Program-made: the position numbers and the translations under genes
Source of the DNA: Escherichia phage vB_EcoS_UTEC10
DNA length: 44,773 nt
Sequence record: PP291582.1
Strand: one strand, 5' to 3'
Shown: one piece after another, positions 5,767-15,533 of the stretch
How positions within the stretch are numbered: position 1 is the first letter of the stretch
Layout: each line of letters begins with the position of its first letter
Notes under the pieces: generated by a model
The model's input: only the letters and a program-made list of their open reading frames with translations
What the model was told of the DNA's origin: nothing
The model's database searches: none

Positions 5767-6033
5767 TCACCCCATCTTCTCTTTAACGTGCACCCAAAAC
5801 TCACCACAGTACCAGCACCACATAAGATTAGGCGTCTCGCGCACCCAACCGTAATCCTTGCGGGCACGAATCGGGATAATACCCTTAGTGAAATAATAAC
5901 CTGTTCGCAGAAACTCAGGGTCGCGAGTCGCAGTGCGCCACATGTTATAAAACTGCTCCAGCCCGGAACCCCGGCGCATGACCCGTATTTTATGGTTATA
6001 TTCCGCTACTGTTTTCAGTTCAGTGTTATTCAT
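5767..6033 (-). CDS. hypothetical protein
   Basis: 88 aa track ORF; ATG start; ATGA overlap with the upstream gene stop. Confidence 0.5.
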   Translation of the reverse strand: MNNTELKTVAEYNHKIRVMRRGSGLEQFYNMWRTATRDPEFLRTGYYFTKGIIPIRARKDYGWVRETPNLMWCWYCGEFWVHVKEKMG

Positions 6034-6284
6034 TTACGGCAACCTCCCTCAGAGTCGTCGGCACGGGCATCATGATTCGATGCCGTTGTGAATGATGCGG
6101 AAGCAACATCGAAGAAACTAACGGTTAAAGTCTCGCCCACAGCGTCCTCTAAATCCCATTCATCACCGTCTTCATCTAAAACGTATCGACGGCCGTCGTA
6201 ATATACTCCCGACGAATACTTGTTACCTTTTACAAACCAATGCTGCACATCTGGACCAGATTCAATACAAATTAATTCTCCCAT
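6030..6284 (-). CDS. hypothetical protein
   Basis: Track ORF 6030..6287 (GTG); ATG at 6284. Confidence 0.45.
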   Translation of the reverse strand: MGELICIESGPDVQHWFVKGNKYSSGVYYDGRRYVLDEDGDEWDLEDAVGETLTVSFFDVASASFTTASNHDARADDSEGGCRK

Positions 6285-6469
6285 CACTTCGCCCCTTTGA
6301 ATTTAAAATTGTTGCCGATGAGTGTTAAATCACATTTACGGAGCAGTCCCTTACCAAACCCAGCTACGCTATTAACCTCAACAAAACCGAACCACATTAG
6401 CTTCGACTCTATTACAGTGAATAAATCGCCGCTAAATTTATCCCTAACCAACTGACCTTTCTTAAACAT
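6284..6469 (-). CDS. hypothetical protein
   Basis: Track ORF 6284..6478 (GTG); ATG at 6469 with AAGGGGTGAGG RBS. Confidence 0.45.
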   Translation of the reverse strand: MFKKGQLVRDKFSGDLFTVIESKLMWFGFVEVNSVAGFGKGLLRKCDLTLIGNNFKFKGAK

Positions 6470-7142: not shown

Positions 7143-7171
7143 TTGATTTCCCATTATTCGCAATGTATACT
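7143..7171 (+). promoter_or_regulatory. sigma70-like promoter TTGATT-N17-TATACT for the rightward operon
   Basis: Near-consensus hexamers with 17-nt spacer in the 460-bp divergent intergenic region; lacks the AATAG/CTATT repeat. Confidence 0.5.
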
Positions 7172-7203
7172 TGGTTTCGTTAACTGATAATGGGGGTTTG
7201 AGA

Positions 7204-7374
7204 ATGACACAGAATGAAGTAGCCGAGCGTATTGGGGTTACCCGTCGCACGCTGAATAACTGGTTAAAGAGTGGGAAGTTCCCGGATTGTTGTATCCGTA
7301 TTATGGGCCGCCGGCAGCCGGGTACTTTCGACCCGGAGAAAGTGGAAGCGTGGATTAAGGAGAATGTAAAATGA
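7204..7374 (+). CDS. AlpA/Xis-like HTH transcriptional regulator
   Basis: Internal ATG of track ORF 7171..7374; MTQNEVAERIGVTRRTLNNWLKSGKFP resembles AlpA-family HTH proteins. Confidence 0.5.
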   Translation: MTQNEVAERIGVTRRTLNNWLKSGKFPDCCIRIMGRRQPGTFDPEKVEAWIKENVK

Positions 7375-7604
7375 CCGAGTTCCAGTCCCGCGTATTTACG
7401 GCAGTCGTTTCATTAACCTGTAAAAAAGGGTCGTGCAGCGTTATGGACTTGCGCCGTAGTTATTTTAGGTACTATAGTTCCGCCATTATTGAAGGGTCGT
7501 TGAAGGTACTGGTTAAATCTGGTGTCGTGAAAAATGTTGGCGGGAAATATAGTGCTGTTGCCGAAGTTCGCGGAATGACCGCTACTTTAGAAGACCTGGA
7601 ATAA
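7371..7604 (+). CDS. hypothetical protein with C-terminal LEDLE tail
   Basis: 77 aa; ATGA overlap with the upstream gene; C-terminus ...ATLEDLE. Confidence 0.45.
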   Translation: MTEFQSRVFTAVVSLTCKKGSCSVMDLRRSYFRYYSSAIIEGSLKVLVKSGVVKNVGGKYSAVAEVRGMTATLEDLE

Positions 7605-7662
7605 AAGAAAGCCCCGACGCGGTGAACGCCGAGGCTAAATTACTTGCTGAAGGAAATATAAC

Positions 7663-9903
7663 ATGTCCGATGTAATTTTATCCTACTCGTGGTCTCGTCG
7701 CAACGCGCGGGCGGAGAAAAAGGATATAAACGTCAGAACCACACACACGGCAACGCTGGGCGACCTGAAAGATTTAATCCAGCCGCTTGATGCTGTCCGT
7801 GACGGAATTAACCCGAAGACCGCACCCGGTTATATCACCGCCGCGTGCGACTCCACACACAGCACCGTAAAAGACCCGGAAACAGGCGACTTTAAGCAGG
7901 CGCGTAAAGGCTTCTTCTATCGCTGTGATGCGTCTGTAAGCAAATCGTCGCTGGCGTATCTTGACTTCGACAGTGCAACGCCGGAAGAGTATCAGGAAGC
8001 GGTGCGCCTGGTTAAGCGCAGCCGCCAGGCGATGTGTCTCTACACCACGGCATCACATACCGACGAGTCGCCGCGCTTTCGCGTCGTCATGCCGCTGGCC
8101 CGCCCGGTTGAAGGTGGCGACATCATCCGTGTTCGCCATGGATTACTGGAGCACTTCTTCAAAGGCATGGGCGCGGACCGCAGCGGGTTCACTCTGTCGC
8201 AGCCGATGTACCTGCCGCCAGTTGGCGCTACTGTTATCTGGTCGCGCCGCAACGACCTGATTGACCCTGATGAGTTACTGGAAGGCGTCCCAGCCGTTGA
8301 CATCAGCAGCGCATCTGACTACCAGATACCGGAAGAACTGCGCACTGCGTTTACTGATGCGTTTGAGGCACTGGCGTTCGAGTACGGTGGCATCATGACG
8401 CCGCGCGGACTAAAAATGCCAGCTACACCGGAACACGCAGAGAACTACAGCGACCCGACGCCGCGCTCGGACGACTTCCTGCTGTGCTTCCCACGCGAGG
8501 GGTATGAAGCGCCGAACGTAACCATGATTCACGACACCGACATCACGGCAACCGAAGGCATGTCACCGAAAGAGGTGTGGAAATATGCGTGCGATGCGAC
8601 CGGGCTGCCGTTCAGTGAGGTCGCTGAGGCCATCGGTTGGGGTGCGCGTGAATCAGTTTCATGCAGTCTCGACGACCTGGAAGACGATGAGGACTCAGAG
8701 GAGGACGAGTTACCGGAGCCGGTAAAGGCTGATTTCGTCGTAGAAGGGTACATGCCGTCGGATTGCATATGGGATATTGTTGGGGAATCCGGTACGTATA
8801 AATCATTCTATACGCTGGGGATGATGTACCTCAGCGCCGCCGGATACCGGTTTGCAGGGGCGGATACCCAGCGTTGCCACCATTTCTATATTGACGGTGA
8901 GGGCGGCGCGGCCACACGCACACGTATCGATGCGCTCGCGGCTAAATACGGCGAGGAAGGTAAAGATTATGTACATGTTATCGACATGGGTGAAGTCGGA
9001 AAACTTAAAAGCCTGATTAAGTTAATGCGCGAAACTGCTGGCGACGAGCCAATCGGTATGGTCGCGTTCGACACCCTTAACCAGACGCTGGCCCTGACGA
9101 TTGATAAGTTCGACGAGAACAGTTCATCAACGGCAATCGGCATGGGTAAAGTTATCGCTATCCTGAAAGAAGTGCGTGATGCGACTAAAGCCGCAGTGGG
9201 CGTTGTGCACCATACGCCGAAGGGCGGAAAGAAAGCCCGTGGTAGTGGAGCATTGTATGCGGGTGTCGACGTGGAGCTGACAATCGAACGCGCGACCGAC
9301 CGTCAGATAAATGTATACCACTCTAAATTTAAGCACGGGCCCCAACAGAAGACGGTTGGTATGGTGCTGGAGTCTGTACAGTTCCGTGAAGCTCCGCCGC
9401 CGAAAGAGTACCGTGCGGTTGAGTTTCTTGGTAGTACAGAGGAATACGGCACAATCGTTAACCTGGACCTGCCTGAGCCTCACAAGGCGCTTGTGCTGAT
9501 GCCGTGGGGCTTCGAGCCGTTCAAAACTGACGAGGAGAAAGAGCGGGAAGAAGGGCTGACAAAGGAAGGTAAAGAAAACGTAAAGAATGCTGTAAAACGC
9601 GGGAAGGATGAAGGGCGTAAGGAGTCAATACTCGCCGCGCTGGAAGACCTGCAACAGTCCGACGACACCGGACGGGGTTTCACCCAACGGCAGATAGTAG
9701 CGAACTCCGGCGACCACGCCATCACAAACCACCATCTCGAGAAGATGTTGAAAGACGGTGAGTTGATGCTAGGGTGTGATGCCAACGGTGAAGTTATACC
9801 AGGAACATACCGGATACCTGAAAAGATGGGCGACAGATTAAGACCGAAGACAATATACGAACCGAATGAAATGCTTACAGTGACCGAGGAAGATTTGGAA
9901 TAG
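7663..9903 (+). CDS. bifunctional DNA primase / RecA-fold (DnaB/T7 gp4-like) helicase
   Basis: 746 aa; N-terminal primase-like region (RFRVVMPLARP), central acidic linker, C-terminal Walker-A-like GESGTYKS and HHTPKGG...RGSGAL motifs as in gp4-type helicases; ends EEDLE. Confidence 0.75.
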   Translation: MSDVILSYSWSRRNARAEKKDINVRTTHTATLGDLKDLIQPLDAVRDGINPKTAPGYITAACDSTHSTVKDPETGDFKQARKGFFYRCDASVSKSSLAYLDFDSATPEEYQEAVRLVKRSRQAMCLYTTASHTDESPRFRVVMPLARPVEGGDIIRVRHGLLEHFFKGMGADRSGFTLSQPMYLPPVGATVIWSRRNDLIDPDELLEGVPAVDISSASDYQIPEELRTAFTDAFEALAFEYGGIMTPRGLKMPATPEHAENYSDPTPRSDDFLLCFPREGYEAPNVTMIHDTDITATEGMSPKEVWKYACDATGLPFSEVAEAIGWGARESVSCSLDDLEDDEDSEEDELPEPVKADFVVEGYMPSDCIWDIVGESGTYKSFYTLGMMYLSAAGYRFAGADTQRCHHFYIDGEGGAATRTRIDALAAKYGEEGKDYVHVIDMGEVGKLKSLIKLMRETAGDEPIGMVAFDTLNQTLALTIDKFDENSSSTAIGMGKVIAILKEVRDATKAAVGVVHHTPKGGKKARGSGALYAGVDVELTIERATDRQINVYHSKFKHGPQQKTVGMVLESVQFREAPPPKEYRAVEFLGSTEEYGTIVNLDLPEPHKALVLMPWGFEPFKTDEEKEREEGLTKEGKENVKNAVKRGKDEGRKESILAALEDLQQSDDTGRGFTQRQIVANSGDHAITNHHLEKMLKDGELMLGCDANGEVIPGTYRIPEKMGDRLRPKTIYEPNEMLTVTEEDLE

Positions 9904-9912
9904 GTAAAAAGA

Positions 9913-9931
9913 AAGGGGCGTTAAGCCCCTT
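9913..9931. terminator. hairpin overlapping the stop codon of the XRE gene
   Basis: AAGGGGC-GTTAA-GCCCCTT stem-loop; T-rich flank on the minus strand. Confidence 0.4.
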
Positions 9932-10136
9932 CACCGAACGCCAGCCACTTAGCGTCTACTTCCAGCACTTCCGCCAGTTTAAACAGCGTCGACGGGCGGA
10001 CGTCCTGAGTCACCCCGAGTGCCAGCTGGTTAATTGCGCCCTGGGAAACGCCAGCCAGAACAGCCAGACGGCGCTGGGAGATACCTAATTCTTTACGGCG
10101 TTGCTCTACACGGATGCCTAGTTCAGATGGTTGCAT
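9921..10136 (-). CDS. XRE-family (Cro/CI-type) HTH transcriptional regulator
   Basis: 71 aa; LGISQRRLAVLAGVSQGAINQLALG is a canonical HTH_3 motif; lone minus-strand gene in the plus-strand replication block; AAGGAG RBS. Confidence 0.8.
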   Translation of the reverse strand: MQPSELGIRVEQRRKELGISQRRLAVLAGVSQGAINQLALGVTQDVRPSTLFKLAEVLEVDAKWLAFGEGA

Positions 10137-10166
10137 ATCAATTACTCCTTAGTCAGTTGATATGTG

Positions 10167-10180
10167 AATAGTACCATATT
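10167..10180 (-). promoter_or_regulatory. operator-like half-palindrome overlapping an extended -10 (TGG-TACTAT) for the XRE gene
   Basis: GAATAG-TACC-ATATT imperfect copy of the AATAG-N4-CTATT repeat; TGGTACTAT on the minus strand about 25 nt upstream of the XRE start. Confidence 0.4.
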
Positions 10181-10200
10181 AATTATTTTAGAAAAGCCCA

Positions 10201-10230
10201 TTGACATAATGAATAGTTCGCTATTATAGT
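10201..10230 (+). promoter_or_regulatory. strong sigma70-like promoter TTGACA-N18-TATAGT with embedded AATAG-N4-CTATT repeat
   Basis: Consensus -35; inverted repeat at 10212-10225 in the spacer; drives the acidic-protein gene. Confidence 0.6.
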
Positions 10231-10261
10231 TAACCCATACCAAACGAGAGGAGAGAAACAA

Positions 10262-10762
10262 ATGTTAGACCAATTTTTAAAATTACTGGAACGTTTCGTA
10301 GTCGCGCATGAACTGATTGCCGCAAACAGTGTGAAACGACCGGTGCCGCCGACTGAGCGTGTGGGCGAAATGCTTGTAGACGTGTCAGTTACGGGAGAGG
10401 TACTTGAAGTCGACCCGGGCACCGGCGTCGGGAAAGAAATCCCGGTCGAAGGCGAAGACGTCGTCGACACTAAACCGGCAGAAGAAGAGAAGCCGAAACG
10501 CAAGCCGCGTAAAGCTAAAGTAGATGAACCGACGCCAGAGCCGGAAGAAGAAGTCGATTACCAGTCTCTTCGTGACCAGATTCAGGCTATCGACGATGCG
10601 ATTAACGAAGGTCCTAGCGATGCTGCGTGCGATGATTCCGATGAACTGCTGGAAGAGTTCACCGGTAAGAAAATGAAGATTGCCGCGATTAAAGACGAAG
10701 ACCTGGCGGAATACCTGGAGCGCCTGACAGCAATCAAGAACAAGTATTTCGAAGAAGAATAA
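10262..10762 (+). CDS. highly acidic protein
   Basis: 166 aa rich in Asp/Glu with a short basic patch (KPKRKPRKAK); strong RBS GAGAGGAGAG; flanked by promoter and terminator. Confidence 0.55.
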   Translation: MLDQFLKLLERFVVAHELIAANSVKRPVPPTERVGEMLVDVSVTGEVLEVDPGTGVGKEIPVEGEDVVDTKPAEEEKPKRKPRKAKVDEPTPEPEEEVDYQSLRDQIQAIDDAINEGPSDAACDDSDELLEEFTGKKMKIAAIKDEDLAEYLERLTAIKNKYFEEE

Positions 10763-10769
10763 ATATACC

Positions 10770-10788
10770 GCGGCCTTCGGGCCGCTTT
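10770..10788 (+). terminator. Rho-independent terminator/attenuator
   Basis: GCGGCC-TTCG-GGCCGC hairpin followed by TTT. Confidence 0.5.
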
Positions 10789-10805
10789 AACTGAGGGTCG
10801 GAAAT

Positions 10806-11078
10806 ATGATTTACCAACTCTACCGCGCCGTTGACAGACGGGACAACACGGAGGCGCTATGGTTATTGCGTGCACCGTCCGGCGCGCACCAGATGGAAGA
10901 GATGGCGTACTTAGGAAAAGTACCGCGACCTAAAGATATAGGCCGCCACGTGTCGCAGATTAAGCGCACGACTTTCGCCAAACCTGACTTTTATGTCTTC
11001 GAGTCAATGTATGGGTGGGCTATGCATTGTCATCACCAAACGCGACATTTAATTGACCAGTGGGAGAACAGGGTATGA
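10806..11078 (+). CDS. hypothetical protein
   Basis: 90 aa; GAGGGT RBS; stop overlaps the start of the exonuclease gene (ATGA at 11075). Confidence 0.5.
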   Translation: MIYQLYRAVDRRDNTEALWLLRAPSGAHQMEEMAYLGKVPRPKDIGRHVSQIKRTTFAKPDFYVFESMYGWAMHCHHQTRHLIDQWENRV

Positions 11079-12316
11079 TTTTAAAGGAACGCGGCGGCAA
11101 CAACGATGTGCACGCCTTACTATCACCGTCGGGTGCTAAGAAGTGGCTAACCTGCGCGGCGTCACTGGCCTGTGAAAAAGATATTCCTAACACGTCAGGT
11201 AAGGCCGCAGTGTTAGGCACAGCTATGCACACTATAGCTGAGGTCCATCTAAACCAGTACATCAAAGGCACTGCGTTACCGTTAGAGCGCGAAGTTGGCG
11301 CTTACGTGCTGGATGAGGGTAAAGGACAGATTAAGGCGTTAATCAGCCCGATGAAAGGCGCGGTACTGATTACGGCTGACATGATTGAACAGGTTCGCAA
11401 GTACACCGACTACTGCAAAGCGATTATCGATGTAGCGACTTACGCCAAGCTGGAAATGCGCGTCAATCTTACTGAGGTGTTGCACCCAGGCTACGAAGGC
11501 GTCGAGACGTTCGGAACGGCCGACCTTGTTGCCGTGCAGGAACTGGCCAACACCGACGAGCACATGCTTATTATCGGCGACCTGAAAACTGGACGACATC
11601 GTGTCGAAGCGAAAGAAAACAAGCAGCTTATGCTTTACGCTCTCGGTGTTTATCGCCGACTCAAGAGACGTTATAACATCACCGTTGTTCGTCTGGTCAT
11701 CTTTCAGCCGTATGCTGGAGGTGCGTCGGAGTGGGACATCTCGGTTGAAGGCCTTGAACTGTTCGCTAAGTTTGCGCAGAAACGCGCACTGTTGGCTCTC
11801 GATGCGTATTCCCGTGGCAAGAAGAATCTGAAAGCGTCGGACTTCAGGCCGTCGGTAGACGGTTGTCAGTGGTGCCGGTTCTCTGAACAGTGCGCCGCGC
11901 GTACAAAAACCGTTAACGCGGTACTGGCGGAAGAACTGGAAGACGACTTTGCGCTGGAACTGACACCAGAGCAACTCGTAACTGAGTATGAGAAATTGCC
12001 GCTGTTGCGCCAGCATATCGACAAGGTTGAAAAAGCTATGGCTGCTGCGTTGCATTCCGGTAAAAAAGTTCCTGGGTACAAACTGGTAGAAGGTCGCCCG
12101 GGTAATCGTGCGTGGAAAGACGCAGAGAAAGTAGCAGAACTCTACGGCGACAAGCTGACTAAAGAAGTGCTCATGACGCCAACCGAAGCTGTTAAAGTCA
12201 TACCGGAAGAAGAGCTGAAAAACTTCATTACCCGTAAGCCCGGTGCACCATGTGTCGCAACGGCAGACGACAAACGCCCTGAGTGGAATCAGGTTAGTGA
12301 AGAAGATTTGGAATAA
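11075..12316 (+). CDS. PD-(D/E)XK exonuclease, Cas4/RecB-like (DUF2800-type)
   Basis: Internal ATG of track ORF 11060..12316; LLSPSGAKKWLTC N-terminus, IIGDLKTG...EAKENKQLMLYAL nuclease motifs, C-terminal CQWCRFSEQC cysteine cluster; ends EEDLE. Confidence 0.7.
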   Translation: MILKERGGNNDVHALLSPSGAKKWLTCAASLACEKDIPNTSGKAAVLGTAMHTIAEVHLNQYIKGTALPLEREVGAYVLDEGKGQIKALISPMKGAVLITADMIEQVRKYTDYCKAIIDVATYAKLEMRVNLTEVLHPGYEGVETFGTADLVAVQELANTDEHMLIIGDLKTGRHRVEAKENKQLMLYALGVYRRLKRRYNITVVRLVIFQPYAGGASEWDISVEGLELFAKFAQKRALLALDAYSRGKKNLKASDFRPSVDGCQWCRFSEQCAARTKTVNAVLAEELEDDFALELTPEQLVTEYEKLPLLRQHIDKVEKAMAAALHSGKKVPGYKLVEGRPGNRAWKDAEKVAELYGDKLTKEVLMTPTEAVKVIPEEELKNFITRKPGAPCVATADDKRPEWNQVSEEDLE

Positions 12317-12320
12317 AGTG

Positions 12321-12349
12321 TTGACACCTGAATAGTTAGCTATTATAGT
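12321..12349 (+). promoter_or_regulatory. sigma70-like promoter TTGACA-N17-TATAGT with embedded AATAG-N4-CTATT repeat
   Basis: Consensus -35; inverted repeat at 12331-12344. Confidence 0.6.
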
Positions 12350-12402
12350 TCTAATCACTGGCCGGGCAGCTCCCGGAGTAAACTGAAAAGCGAGAAATCA
12401 CG

Positions 12403-13029
12403 ATGGGTATTAAACTGAATCTGCGTAAAGTAAACACTGCTTGGGTTAACGTATTCGAACGCGAAAAAGACCGTGAAAACGATGATGGCTCCATCACTAA
12501 AGGCCAGTACAGCGCGACTATCATCTTGCCGTCTGACCATGCTCAAATTGATGCGCTCTACGACACAGTTTACGCTGTAGTTGAAGAAGCGTTAGGTGCA
12601 GCCGCTGCCGAGAAGTGGATGAAGTCCAACTACGGCGAAGGTAAGCACATGGATAAATGCGCGATTAAAGACATTGCCGAGCGCGACAATCCGTTTGAAG
12701 ACTTCCCGGAAGGCTTCTACTTCAAGGCGAAGGCACAGAAACAGCCACTGATTGTAACCTCTAAAAAAGGTGAGACTCAGGTAGAGCAGGACTTCAACGT
12801 AGATGGTGAACAGATTGAAGGCGAACAGGTTTACAGCGGATGCGTCGCTAACGTAAGCGTCGAAATCTGGTTCAGCCAGAAATACAAAGTTCTCGGTGTT
12901 AACCTGCTGGCAATTAAATACGTCGGCGAAGGTAAAGCGTTCGGTGGTTCTAAAGTCGCAGCAAGTGTCAATGACCTGGAAGACGACGAAGAAGATGAAG
13001 CACCTCGCCGCGAACGTCGTCGCCGCTAA
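12403..13029 (+). CDS. ssDNA-binding-like protein (DUF2815-type) with acidic/basic C-terminal tail
   Basis: 208 aa; follows the DUF2800 nuclease as in the conserved nuclease / SSB-like / polymerase phage module; C-terminus DLEDDEEDEAPRRERRRR. Confidence 0.55.
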   Translation: MGIKLNLRKVNTAWVNVFEREKDRENDDGSITKGQYSATIILPSDHAQIDALYDTVYAVVEEALGAAAAEKWMKSNYGEGKHMDKCAIKDIAERDNPFEDFPEGFYFKAKAQKQPLIVTSKKGETQVEQDFNVDGEQIEGEQVYSGCVANVSVEIWFSQKYKVLGVNLLAIKYVGEGKAFGGSKVAASVNDLEDDEEDEAPRRERRRR

Positions 13030-13048
13030 CATCTGAATCAATTTAACT

Positions 13049-13072
13049 AAGGCCCTTCATTGGGCCTTTTTA
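13049..13072 (+). terminator. Rho-independent terminator
   Basis: AAGGCCC-TTCATT-GGGCCTT hairpin followed by TTTT. Confidence 0.55.
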
Positions 13073-13085
13073 CTAAGGGTCGAAA

Positions 13086-13244
13086 ATGATGTTTTTCTGT
13101 AAACACGTTTATCGCTATATGAAACCGCTTCCTTGGTACGCGGATGAGTACCGGGCCGGGTACAGGCATGTGTGTATTTGCCGTGATTGTATGAAAATAA
13201 GACTCAGCGAAACGAAGGCACTGGATTTAAGGAAAAAGAAATGA
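13086..13244 (+). CDS. small Cys-rich protein (52 aa) coupled to the DNA polymerase gene
   Basis: Manually translated (MMFFCKHVYRYMKPLPWYADEYRAGYRHVCICRDCMK...); AAGGGT RBS; stop overlaps the polymerase ATG (ATGA at 13241). Confidence 0.35.
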   Translation: MMFFCKHVYRYMKPLPWYADEYRAGYRHVCICRDCMKIRLSETKALDLRKKK

Positions 13245-15412
13245 GCTACTTATACCTGGACTTTGAAACCTACAGCGACATCGATTTGAAGAAAGTCGGT
13301 TCCTACGCTTACGCCGAACACCCGTCAACCGAAGTGCTTATCTGCACATATGCTTTTGACGATGAGCCTGTAAGGGTATGGGATTGCACCGACGGCAGCG
13401 ACATGCCGGGCGATTTGCACCGCGCCTTGCGCCGCCTGGTGAAACCGAACAGTCGCATTAAGATGGTGTGGCACAACGGCTCAATGTTCGACCGTCTCAT
13501 CATGAAGCACTGCTGGGACTTTGATATTCCGGTAAGCAACACCATTGATACGATGATTTGGGCGTTTCGTCACGCGCTGCCGGGGTCACTCGATGCGTTG
13601 TGTGAAGTGCTTGGCGTATCTGCGGACAACGCAAAAGACAAACGCGGCAAGGCGCTCATACAACGTTTCTCTAAACCGACGCCGAAGAACTACAAAATCC
13701 GCCGCTACACCGCTGAAACGCACCCTGATGAGTGGGCGCTGTTCATCAAGTACGCCGTGAGTGACATCACTGCGATGCGTGAAGTCTTCCATAAGCTGCC
13801 GCGGTGGGGTAACTCCGAGTTCGAAGACCGTGTACTGGAGCTGGACCAGCTAATTAATGACCGCGGGTTTAAGGTTGACGTAGCGCTGGCGGAAGCTGCG
13901 ATTGAGGCTGTGGAGAAACACAAAGCGCAGTTACAGGAAGAAGCCCAACGTAAATACGGCGGCTCGCTGACTGGTAAGGATTTTCTGCCGATTCTGCGTG
14001 AACTGGCACCCGCGCACCGCATCCACAATGCGCAGAAGTCGACGCTGAATGACCTGCTGGCAGACGATGACTTACCTGACGACGCACGTACGATTATTGA
14101 AATGCGCCTTGGTGCGGCGTCCACTGCGTCAACGAAATATAACCCGCTGCTGTTGGGCCGCTCGTCGGACGACCGCCGTCGTGGTTGCATCCAGTATGGC
14201 GGGGCAAAGCGTACGCTACGGTTCGCCGGTAAAGGCTTTCAGCCGCAGAACCTGGCGCGCGGGTACTATCACGATGATGAACTGGATAAAGGCATTTCAG
14301 CGTTACTTAAGGGTCGTGCGCACCGCCGATTTGACGTAGCCAAGCTAACGGCATCAACGGTGCGTAGCTGCATTATCCCGGAAGCCGGGCATAAGTTTGT
14401 TGTCGCTGATTACTCGAACGTTGAAGGTCGCGGTCTTGCGTGGCTGGCGGGTGAAGACGATTTAATCGAAGTATTTGTAAACGGGGTTGATGTGTACAAG
14501 AAACTAGCATCAACGGTGTTCAACGTCGCGTATGAGGCCGTAACAAAGGACCAAAGACAAATCGCTAAAGCAATGGTTCTGGGCCTCGGCTACGCGGGGG
14601 GCGTAGGTGCTTTTGTCACGTTTGCTAAAAACTTAGGTCTTGATTTGAACGATATGACCAGCACTTTAGACGGGTCATTCCCTGACCACATCTGGGCCGC
14701 TACCGCACGCGGATATGAGTGGGCACGCATTCAGGAGGCCAAGAGACCGCCGCGGCCTGGTGAAAAGGATGACAGACCGTCGTATATTCTTGATAAGAAA
14801 GTGTGGCGTACCTGCGACGCTTTAAAGCGCATGTACCGAGAAGCTAATCCCGCAATAGTCCAATTCTGGCGGGATATTGAAGACGCGGCTATGGCAGCTA
14901 TCCGCAATCCGGGTAAAGAGTTCACCGCGGGGCCGCGAGGCGTTAAGTTTTCGCGTAACGTAGAGACAGATAACAACGGCAACAAAGTCGCCGGTTGGTG
15001 GTTGCGCATGACGTTGCCGTCGGGTCGTGTTATGTCCTACCCTGGCGTCGGATTAAGTGTGTCGAAAGAGACAGATGAAGACGGAAAGGTGTCTACTAAC
15101 GTGCGCATCAAGTATCAGGGTGAAAATCAGTTAACCCGTCAGTGGGGATTCCAGTACACATATTCCGGTAAACTCGTGGAAAACTGCACTCAGGCGCTGT
15201 GCCGTGATTTGCTGGCTAATGCACTGCTGAACGTAGAGGCAAACGGCTACCCGATTGTGCTTCATGTCCACGATGAGATTATCTGCGAGACACCAGATTT
15301 ACCAGAATACAATGTCGCAGAACTGGAACGATTGATGTGCGAATTACCGGAATGGGCCGAGGGGTTCCCTCTTGTAGCAGAAGGTGCGGAGATGAAGCGT
15401 TATGCTAAGTAA
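13241..15412 (+). CDS. family A DNA polymerase with N-terminal 3'-5' exonuclease domain
   Basis: Internal ATG of track ORF 13187..15412; LYLDFETYSD is an Exo I motif; C-terminal region has PolA-like motifs including HVHDEII. Confidence 0.85.
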   Translation: MSYLYLDFETYSDIDLKKVGSYAYAEHPSTEVLICTYAFDDEPVRVWDCTDGSDMPGDLHRALRRLVKPNSRIKMVWHNGSMFDRLIMKHCWDFDIPVSNTIDTMIWAFRHALPGSLDALCEVLGVSADNAKDKRGKALIQRFSKPTPKNYKIRRYTAETHPDEWALFIKYAVSDITAMREVFHKLPRWGNSEFEDRVLELDQLINDRGFKVDVALAEAAIEAVEKHKAQLQEEAQRKYGGSLTGKDFLPILRELAPAHRIHNAQKSTLNDLLADDDLPDDARTIIEMRLGAASTASTKYNPLLLGRSSDDRRRGCIQYGGAKRTLRFAGKGFQPQNLARGYYHDDELDKGISALLKGRAHRRFDVAKLTASTVRSCIIPEAGHKFVVADYSNVEGRGLAWLAGEDDLIEVFVNGVDVYKKLASTVFNVAYEAVTKDQRQIAKAMVLGLGYAGGVGAFVTFAKNLGLDLNDMTSTLDGSFPDHIWAATARGYEWARIQEAKRPPRPGEKDDRPSYILDKKVWRTCDALKRMYREANPAIVQFWRDIEDAAMAAIRNPGKEFTAGPRGVKFSRNVETDNNGNKVAGWWLRMTLPSGRVMSYPGVGLSVSKETDEDGKVSTNVRIKYQGENQLTRQWGFQYTYSGKLVENCTQALCRDLLANALLNVEANGYPIVLHVHDEIICETPDLPEYNVAELERLMCELPEWAEGFPLVAEGAEMKRYAK

Positions 15413-15533
15413 ACTGATTATCGCAGTACTGGCGGGATTTGCTGTCGGTGTCTACTGTCACGAGGGCCAATACGGCATGATGGTTGCCATATTGGGCATG
15501 TTCATCGCAATTTATATGTGGGTGCTGGAATGA
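15402..15533 (+). CDS. small two-TM membrane protein (43 aa)
   Basis: Manually translated (MLSKLIIAVLAGFAVGVYCHEGQYGMMVAILGMFIAIYMWVLE); overlaps the polymerase 3' end in another frame. Confidence 0.3.
   Translation: MLSKLIIAVLAGFAVGVYCHEGQYGMMVAILGMFIAIYMWVLE

Follow-up and report, generated by a model that had tools for sequence, protein, structure and literature searches.

A shared Asp-Leu tail peptide on replication and recombination proteins of Escherichia phage vB_EcoS_UTEC10 and its relatives, a probable docking motif

Introduction

Several replication and recombination proteins of Escherichia phage vB_EcoS_UTEC10 end with the same short acidic peptide, EDLE; the whole 44,773-nucleotide (nt) stretch of DNA analyzed here (PP291582.1) is referred to as the window. 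The closest described case is that of phage T7, in which gp4 and gp2.5 bind basic patches of the gp5 polymerase through their acidic tails (PMC12593628, PMC12339929). Processivity falls from 17 kb to ~5 kb when the gp4 tail is lost (PMC12593628), and the gp2.5 tail anchors this SSB (a protein that binds single-stranded DNA [ssDNA]) at the front basic patch of the polymerase (PMC12339929). Only these two T7 proteins are tailed (..DGDF in gp2.5 and ..DTDF in gp4), the gp6 exonuclease having no tail. The window system is like that of T7 in possessing a gp2.5-family SSB, a family A polymerase and a helicase-primase, and in carrying a flexible acidic tail with one critical hydrophobic residue on more than one replication protein, while the polymerase has none. 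The analogy with T7 that was drawn in an earlier reading of the sequence (the original prediction) is thus apt, given that the SSB belongs to the gp2.5 family and the polymerase to family A. The window differs from T7 in that the key residue is a Leu followed by Glu or a small residue instead of a terminal Phe, no aromatic end being found; in that the motif has an upstream [A/V/C]-[T/S] part; in that the exonuclease and a small winged-helix protein are carriers; in that the motif also occurs internally, in the helicase-primase linker and in the SSB tail; and in that the SSB ends with an Arg-rich segment.

SSBs of the DUF2815/T7 type (5ODJ, 4JG2, 4KLK, and 1JE5) share family and fold with the window SSB and likewise have an acidic tail with a hydrophobic residue ~10 to 12 residues past F/L-G-G. 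In crystals of Enc34 ORF6, of two other DUF2815 proteins and of T7 gp2.5, the concave sheet of one molecule holds the tail of its neighbor (PMC5686142); the docked Enc34 tail touches the N-terminal strands, and its authors model compatibility with ssDNA binding (PMC5686142). Those observations concern SSB-SSB contacts only and not the same peptide on an exonuclease or a primase. The window motif also resembles hub-client motifs (QL[SD]LF, PIP boxes, and DDDIPF) as a short disordered peptide, found at termini and in internal linkers, with many clients or partners, but its consensus differs and the window has no sliding clamp gene. Whereas the bacterial SSB tip is one tail with many receptors, the window presents many proteins with one tail. 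The exonuclease-annealase pairs lambda Exo-Red beta and RecE-RecT offer a further parallel, as a cognate contact is expected in known pairs; in the lambda pair this contact is made by the folded domain of the annealase, whereas the candidate contact in the window would be made by a C-terminal peptide of the exonuclease that is also borne by the annealase.

The duf2800-gp2.5-polA gene module has been described before (PMC8093625). This module, the acidic tail of the Enc34 SSB with its crystal contacts, and the T7 principle are already known, while the motif, the set of its carriers and its matching across lineages are, as far as can be told, new; in the literature searched, coverage of which was incomplete, we found no description of shared tails in phages with this module. 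Unlike the textbook T7 case, with two proteins in one phage group, four proteins here carry a different and defined peptide, and the number rises to six in Chi-like phages; the carriers include a recombination exonuclease, and the tails are matched within each genome across many lineages.

Copies of the Motif in the Window

EDLE followed by a stop codon is found at the end of three open reading frames (ORFs), encoding a 77-aa protein (..ATLEDLE), the helicase-primase (..TVTEEDLE) and a DUF2800 exonuclease (..VSEEDLE), and at none of the other stops among 3798 in all six frames. From the amino-acid composition of the window, 0.0012 EDLE ends would be expected among its 74 proteins (P of at least three, 2.8e-10), and a 4-mer common to at least three C-termini arose in 0/20000 composition-preserving shuffles. 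A chance origin of the shared ends is therefore excluded, and the original prediction that these three proteins end alike is confirmed. The same prediction had the SSB ending in DLEDDEEDE; this string occupies residues 191 to 199 and is followed by APRRERRRR. It also overlooked a copy in the helicase-primase linker and a weaker one inside the exonuclease. The carriers and the copies are as follows.

7371-7604, + strand: 77-aa protein (PHROG 5169, no assigned function)
7581-7601, + strand: copy 1, ATLEDLE, C-terminus of the 77-aa protein
7663-9903, + strand: replicative helicase-primase (PHROG 3228; AAA_25 ATPase domain at residues 352-522)
8668-8709, + strand: copy 2, tail-like LDDLEDDEDSEEDE, in the linker between the primase and helicase parts
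9877-9900, + strand: copy 3, TVTEEDLE, C-terminus of the helicase-primase
11075-12316 (alternative start 11060), + strand: DUF2800 PD-(D/E)XK (Cas4-like) exonuclease (PF10926, 7.7e-68; PF12705; PHROG 69)
11927-11959, + strand: weaker internal acidic copy AEELEDDFALE, in the variable linker of the exonuclease past the Cys cluster
12293-12313, + strand: copy 4, VSEEDLE, C-terminus of the exonuclease
12403-13029, + strand: gp2.5/Enc34-type ssDNA-binding and annealing protein (SSB, DUF2815; PF10991, 7.3e-16; PHROG 112)
12967-12999, + strand: copy 5, VNDLEDDEEDE (SSB residues 189-199), beginning ~10 residues past the FGG of the oligonucleotide/oligosaccharide-binding (OB) core
13000-13026, + strand: Arg-rich end of the SSB, APRRERRRR

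The extended tail peptides of the window are LTVTEEDLE, NQVSEEDLE, GMTATLEDLE and ASVNDLEDDEEDE.

The motif sits in segments predicted to be disordered or flexible, as judged from structural models for the 77-aa protein and the SSB and from linker variability for the two large proteins. In the AlphaFold2 (AF2) model of the 77-aa protein, residues 1 to 62 form a winged-helix domain of three helices and a beta-hairpin wing (predicted local distance difference test [pLDDT] score of >90), while residues 63 to 77 mostly score <50. An AF2 model of the SSB, built with distant database homologues, matches 5ODJ and 4KLK (E ~1e-9), 4JG2, and T7 gp2.5 1JE5 (1.3e-4), its tail being of low confidence (pLDDT from <50 to ~66). 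In alignments, the linkers preceding the helicase-primase and exonuclease tails vary in both length and sequence.

A Foldseek search with the 77-aa model returned generic winged-helix domains only (MotA, LexA N-domain, IclR, and RPA32 C-domain). The C-terminal region of the helicase-primase also looks winged-helix-like from its sequence; common descent of this domain and the 77-aa protein was considered and is not supported, hhalign giving a probability of 5.5% and BLASTP finding nothing outside the tail.

Conservation among Relatives

The window proteins were aligned with their counterparts from a Jerseyvirus (L002), Serratia phage Tsm2 (L003), Salmonella phage SE1 (L004) and, at a greater distance, E. 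coli phage Bas85 (L005), and an IMG/VR scan with a helicase-primase profile gave 33 further loci, so that the comparison covers ~30 related genomes with protein identities down to 28 to 45%. An initial search of proteins with the exonuclease as query gave nothing below 96% identity; diversity for this protein comes from the locus scans and from a search of 1.8 billion cluster representatives.

Asp-Leu is invariant or nearly so at five sites in four proteins, within the consensus [A/V/C]-[T/S]-x-x-D-L-(E or small residue). The flanks are alike at all five sites, with A/V/C at position −5, T/S at −4, and mostly acidic residues at −3 and −2 before D-L, which is followed by E or a small residue. 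Judged from these alignments, the feature is a defined 7-residue motif rather than a mere acidic stretch. In the helicase-primase (28 to 66% identity), the C-terminal D744-L745 is invariant, as are C334, D338, L339 and P351 of the linker, where C-x-x-x-D-L is kept in all 32 unique relatives. The exonuclease (52 to 90% identity) and the SSB (38 to 78% identity) retain D411-L412 and D191-L192, respectively, without exception in the alignments, and x-D-L-x-D-D of the SSB is invariant in 29 unique relatives. Across the 33 further loci, D-L is kept in 29 to 32 unique sequences per protein.

All 31 full-length helicase-primases among L001 to L033 (31/31; Guernsey-like and Bas85-like) possess the tail and end with ..x-D-L-x(0-2); it is absent from the five most distant homologues, L034 to L038. 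Complete exonucleases of the scanned loci end with ..D-L-x(0-3), L010 being the sole exception, and the L009 copy is truncated and lacks the tail. The same ending, ..x-D-L-x(0-3), is found in 18/18 full-length exonuclease cluster representatives at 37 to 60% identity. In the internal exonuclease copy, L288 and D290 are invariant in 5 sequences. The 77-aa family is confined to Kagunavirus and Jerseyvirus, with tails of the form ATLEDLE or ATPEDLE that always end with EDLE in the scanned loci.

The motif is also portable. Another Guernsey-like lineage (L024, 4136-4324, − strand; L026, 4070-4258, − strand) has, between its SSB and polymerase genes, a 62-aa ORF that ends with ..AMTATDEDLE, although it has no sequence relation to the 77-aa protein, which ends with ..GMTATLEDLE. 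A Pfam scan gave no match for this ORF and added nothing for the fused 758-aa DUF2800 protein P0134. The comparisons show, at the level of sequence, a motif that is under purifying selection as protein and whose carriers are unrelated to one another: the winged-helix protein, the helicase, the PD-(D/E)XK nuclease, the OB-fold SSB and the 62-aa ORF.

The SSB tail of the window clade (window 13000-13026; L003 to L005 and L020 to L032) is a blocky polyampholyte. Past the D-L it has 1 to 3 repeats of an acidic block followed by an x-P-R-K/R-rich basic block, and it mostly finishes with an Arg/Lys-rich end (..RRRR). The Arg-rich end is specific to this clade, distant DUF2815 SSBs being purely acidic and ending with ..DDLV. 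Such a tail could contact DNA, pair with the acidic tails, or serve self-association.

Tails in More Distant Phages

Distant DUF2800 proteins have D-D-F-x-D-[LVI] past a conserved S-D-K-R-P, often with a terminal ..D-L-[VAIL] in addition, and F-x-D-L at the site of the internal exonuclease copy. Among 80 distant loci (SSB present in 75 and polymerase in 61, the order exonuclease-SSB-PolA holding in 61), the SSB tail has the same two-part motif as the exonuclease of its own genome (DDF-x-D-[LVI] plus a terminal ..D-L-[VA]), with exonuclease/SSB end pairs such as DLV/DLV, DLA/DLA, DMI/DMI, and DIL/xVL. The last two residues are identical in 22/66 unique exonuclease-SSB pairs, against 12.2 in shuffles (P = 5e-5, uncorrected for shared ancestry). 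Helicase-primase homologues in the distant loci have no acidic tail, and this protein therefore gained its tail in the Guernsey/Bas85 clade, where Leu also replaced Phe as the hydrophobic residue of exonuclease and SSB alike. Tails of individual phages are listed below.

Yersinia phage YeP6: exonuclease ..AESLI; SSB ..AESLI
Staphylococcus phage SMSAP5: exonuclease ..EDDFDKL; SSB ..EDDFDEL..
Salmonella phage Chi: primase ..PFDDEDEV; small protein ..EEDDV; exonuclease ..AWDDEDDDDEV; SSB ..AWDEDEDWEDEV; small terminase ..DEVDDDEV; SNF2 helicase ..VWDDEE
Providencia phage PibeRecoleta: the same six proteins with matching ..DEV-type ends; SNF2 helicase ..WDDEE

Tail sequences are thus shown, in these comparisons, to covary between the proteins of one genome across lineages. 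The polymerase has no such tail in any lineage examined, its conserved C-terminus being nonacidic (..GFPLVAEG..RYAK). Internal acidic D-L stretches, LLADDDLPDD and AGEDDLIEV, are present at residues 295 and 425, respectively, of the window polymerase (13187-15412).

The small terminase of Chi-like phages (L119, Chi, 14869-15438; L123, PibeRecoleta, 10467-11075) has the ..DDDEV end seen on the primase, exonuclease and SSB, which hints that packaging may be linked to the replication and recombination machinery.

A Probable Docking Peptide and Its Candidate Receptors

Since the motif is fixed, lies in flexible segments of unrelated proteins, matches within genomes and differs between lineages, a docking peptide with one coevolving receptor is the reading that we prefer. 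The EDLE ends are probably copies of one portable docking motif for one shared partner. That the motif binds a partner at all, and which one, we infer from sequence patterns and by analogy. A single receptor pocket would accommodate Asp-Leu together with the Ser/Thr, and electrostatic attraction to a basic surface would come from the acidic residues around them, so that DNA-handling enzymes could be tethered to, and compete for, the same partner at the fork and at resected ends. A common docking peptide had been put forward in the original prediction, and the idea gains from the conserved D-L and flanks, the varied codons, the portability and the lineage-matched tails; the near-identical DNA to which it also appealed is coincidental, as described below.

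Among possible receptors, we rank the tail-binding groove of the SSB OB domain slightly above the polymerase, with another phage protein or a host protein below both. The SSB groove is our first choice, though a tentative one. In this version, the helicase-primase and exonuclease, both producers of ssDNA, would attach to SSB or to SSB-ssDNA chains, as would the winged-helix protein, by means of the same peptide that joins one SSB molecule to the next, the tail of an enzyme taking the place of the tail of a neighboring SSB. Of the 201 residues of Enc34 ORF6, 11 are invisible in the crystal, which puts the visible end at approximately residue 190 (PMC5686142); Tyr189 of ..TSDAYDEDEDE therefore falls within the docked part, and in our alignment it lies within one residue of L192 of the window SSB. 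A basic patch on the family A polymerase, by analogy with T7, is a possible alternative. The window polymerase matches the Pol I palm/fingers core only, and T7 gp5 was absent among the matches listed (the best 60 of 71). The exonuclease, SSB and polymerase genes are nearly always together, so that their co-occurrence is uninformative as to which of the two is the receptor. Some other phage protein or a host protein is a rather unlikely receptor.

Several observations weigh against a single docking motif with a shared receptor. The Enc34 crystal contacts may be packing artifacts. The motif ends with Leu-Glu and not with a T7-like aromatic residue bearing the free carboxylate, so that the T7 mode of recognition may not be transferable, and basic patches cannot be mapped by sequence because T7 gp5 and the window polymerase have diverged too far. 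The L010 exonuclease (10763-12028) ends with EEDSE instead of EEDLE, through natural variation or through a sequencing error; among 30 relatives, the internal exonuclease copy is conserved only in part; and 3 of ~30 further database clusters of the 77-aa family, or 3 of ~40 sequences overall, end with EELE or EDLA. The end-matching test (22/66) carries no correction for the shared ancestry of the loci. Finally, a small terminase as tail carrier in Chi-like phages fits a pure replisome hub poorly.

It is tempting to go further and envisage a lineage-specific “address peptide” on up to six DNA-handling proteins, among them the exonuclease and even the small terminase. A single private receptor, for which the SSB groove on SSB-coated ssDNA is the simplest candidate, would accept them all and would coevolve with the peptides. 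We regard this extended version as doubtful. The address peptides would be the following.

Guernseyvirinae: ..A-T/S-x-x-D-L-E
Chi-like phages: ..W/F-D-D-E-D-E-V
Many environmental phages: ..DDF-x-D-V..DDLV
YeP6: ..AESLI

If it were true, the machineries of coinfecting phages and of the host would be kept apart, and the gain of a tail would amount to the recruitment of a protein into the system. More generally, if the tails bind one receptor, this would explain the physical coupling of the very common exonuclease-SSB-polymerase module, and the tail of a genome would serve as a sequence test for new members of its replication and recombination machinery. The peptides and their point mutations would then be tools to probe replisome assembly and the incompatibility of coinfecting phages, and would also give a handle on cognate exonuclease-annealase pairing, which is relevant to recombineering tools.

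Alternative Explanations

In place of a common partner, each tail could be a DNA mimic that folds onto its own protein at the DNA-binding surface to tune affinity or specificity. Tails with such a role are known from T7 gp2.5, T4 gp32 and E. coli SSB, and the carriers, with their OB fold, helicase, nuclease and winged-helix domain, all bind or process DNA. Removal of the Enc34 tail alters discrimination between ssDNA and double-stranded DNA, the T7 tail competes with ssDNA (PMC5686142), and AF2 places the gp2.5 tail in its own groove (PMC12339929). Four unrelated folds would nevertheless need to recognize a single 7-residue consensus in which Ser/Thr occupies −4 and Asp-Leu is invariant, and the lineage-specific ends match between proteins of one genome, a match for which a generic polyanion has no need. 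We thus find an action in cis improbable as the general explanation.

Alternatively, the tails might recruit or mimic a host factor, for example by imitating the C-terminal tip of the host SSB to capture SSB-interacting enzymes. The bacterial SSB ends with MDFDDDIPF, which the D-[DE]-F-D-D-[ILV] of distant phages does resemble. The A-[ST]-x-x-D-L-E of the window clade, however, is unlike DDDIPF, lacking the terminal Pro-Phe, and unlike the clamp consensus QL[SD]LF; no copy of the motif matches the DDDIPF tip, and none has the Gln or the second hydrophobic position of the clamp-binding QL[SD]LF/QxxLxxF. Moreover, phages of the same host genera (E. coli/Salmonella) have different tails (..DLE in Kagunavirus, ..DEV in Chi, and ..DF in T7), and phage-private partners are therefore favored. 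A host partner as the reason for the shared tails seems to us quite improbable.

The last alternative places the repeat in the DNA. The 14-nt sequence GAAGATTTGGAATA is identical at 9889-9902 and 12302-12315, the original prediction having been right about the likeness of the two sites and having begun each of them 1 base too early. The 77-aa gene encodes the same peptide with other codons, GAAGACCTGGAA. Across relatives, Leu is encoded by TTG, TTA, CTG, CTC, CTT, or CTA, Asp by GAT or GAC, and Glu by GAA or GAG, the amino acids being constant, and codon choice often differs between the two large genes, for helicase-primase and exonuclease, within a single genome (L007, L011, L012, and L016). 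As the codons vary freely, selection acts on the peptide; the 14-nt identity in the window is coincidental, a matter of codon choice, and adds nothing as evidence. A regulatory or recombination site or a product of gene conversion, 14 to 15 nt long at the gene ends and with the peptide as its by-product, might be suggested by the identity of GAAGATTTGGAATA at two gene ends, each copy preceding a regulatory-looking element (a hairpin terminator after 9889-9902 and a promoter after 12302-12315), but it is ruled out by the codon table, with GAAGACCTGGAA as the third window copy and six Leu codons for a fixed peptide in relatives, and by the position of the linker and SSB copies away from gene ends, so that we give it next to no weight.

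Gene Order and Additional Observations

The window belongs to Kagunavirus (Guernseyvirinae), its region 7300-13100 having ~92% DNA identity to Escherichia phages BUCT823 and SZH-1 and other Kagunavirus, and its gene map agrees with that of annotated relatives. The duf2800-gp2.5-polA order is found in the window, with the DUF2800 nuclease, the DUF2815 SSB and the family A polymerase adjacent, and likewise in relatives and distant loci. Besides the tail carriers, the region contains the following genes.

7171-7374: helix-turn-helix protein
9921-10136, − strand: Cro/CI-type repressor, divergent
10262-10762: 166-aa acidic protein (PHROG 3127)
Between the 166-aa protein and the exonuclease: 90-aa protein
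13238-15412, + strand: family A DNA polymerase with 3'-5' exonuclease domain (PF00476, PF01612)

The very acidic 166-aa protein, which elsewhere bears the annotation “13.88 kDa late protein,” ends with K-Y-F-E-E-E, and its relatives end with K-Y-[FY]-[ED]-x-[ED]. Chi, PibeRecoleta and SMSAP5 have a small gene at this place, upstream of the exonuclease, with a similar ..EEH[FY]..IV.., and Bacteroides phage BO1 shows a weaker likeness; the Chi-like counterpart has the lineage tail ..EEDDV. The 166-aa protein may, on these resemblances, be a further member of the module. In the leftward early region, an 85-aa ORF (6030-6287, − strand) without a Pfam match contains the acidic D-L stretch DEDGDEWDLEDAVGE.

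Several relatives (L002, 14041-17139 and 17774-20203; L006, L015, L016, L023, and L029) have polymerase genes of ~1030 to 1060 aa and helicase genes with inteins, annotated as such in L002, and in L001 the polymerase gene has HNH endonuclease genes on both sides. The window polymerase (724 to 741 aa) has no interruption.

A G+C-rich hairpin, AAGGGGC-GTTA-GCCCCTT, lies at 9905-9935 between the convergent helicase-primase and repressor genes and looks like a bidirectional terminator. Sigma-70-like promoters (TTGACA, 17 to 18 nt, and TATAGT) are present at 10201-10231, upstream of the 166-aa gene and beside the divergent repressor gene, and at 12321-12350, just past the exonuclease stop and upstream of the SSB gene. 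Both have a common 21-bp element, GAATAGTT(C/A)GCTATTATAGTT, containing the inverted repeat AATAG-N4-CTATT, and these elements are probably operators of the Cro/CI-type repressor encoded at 9921-10136.

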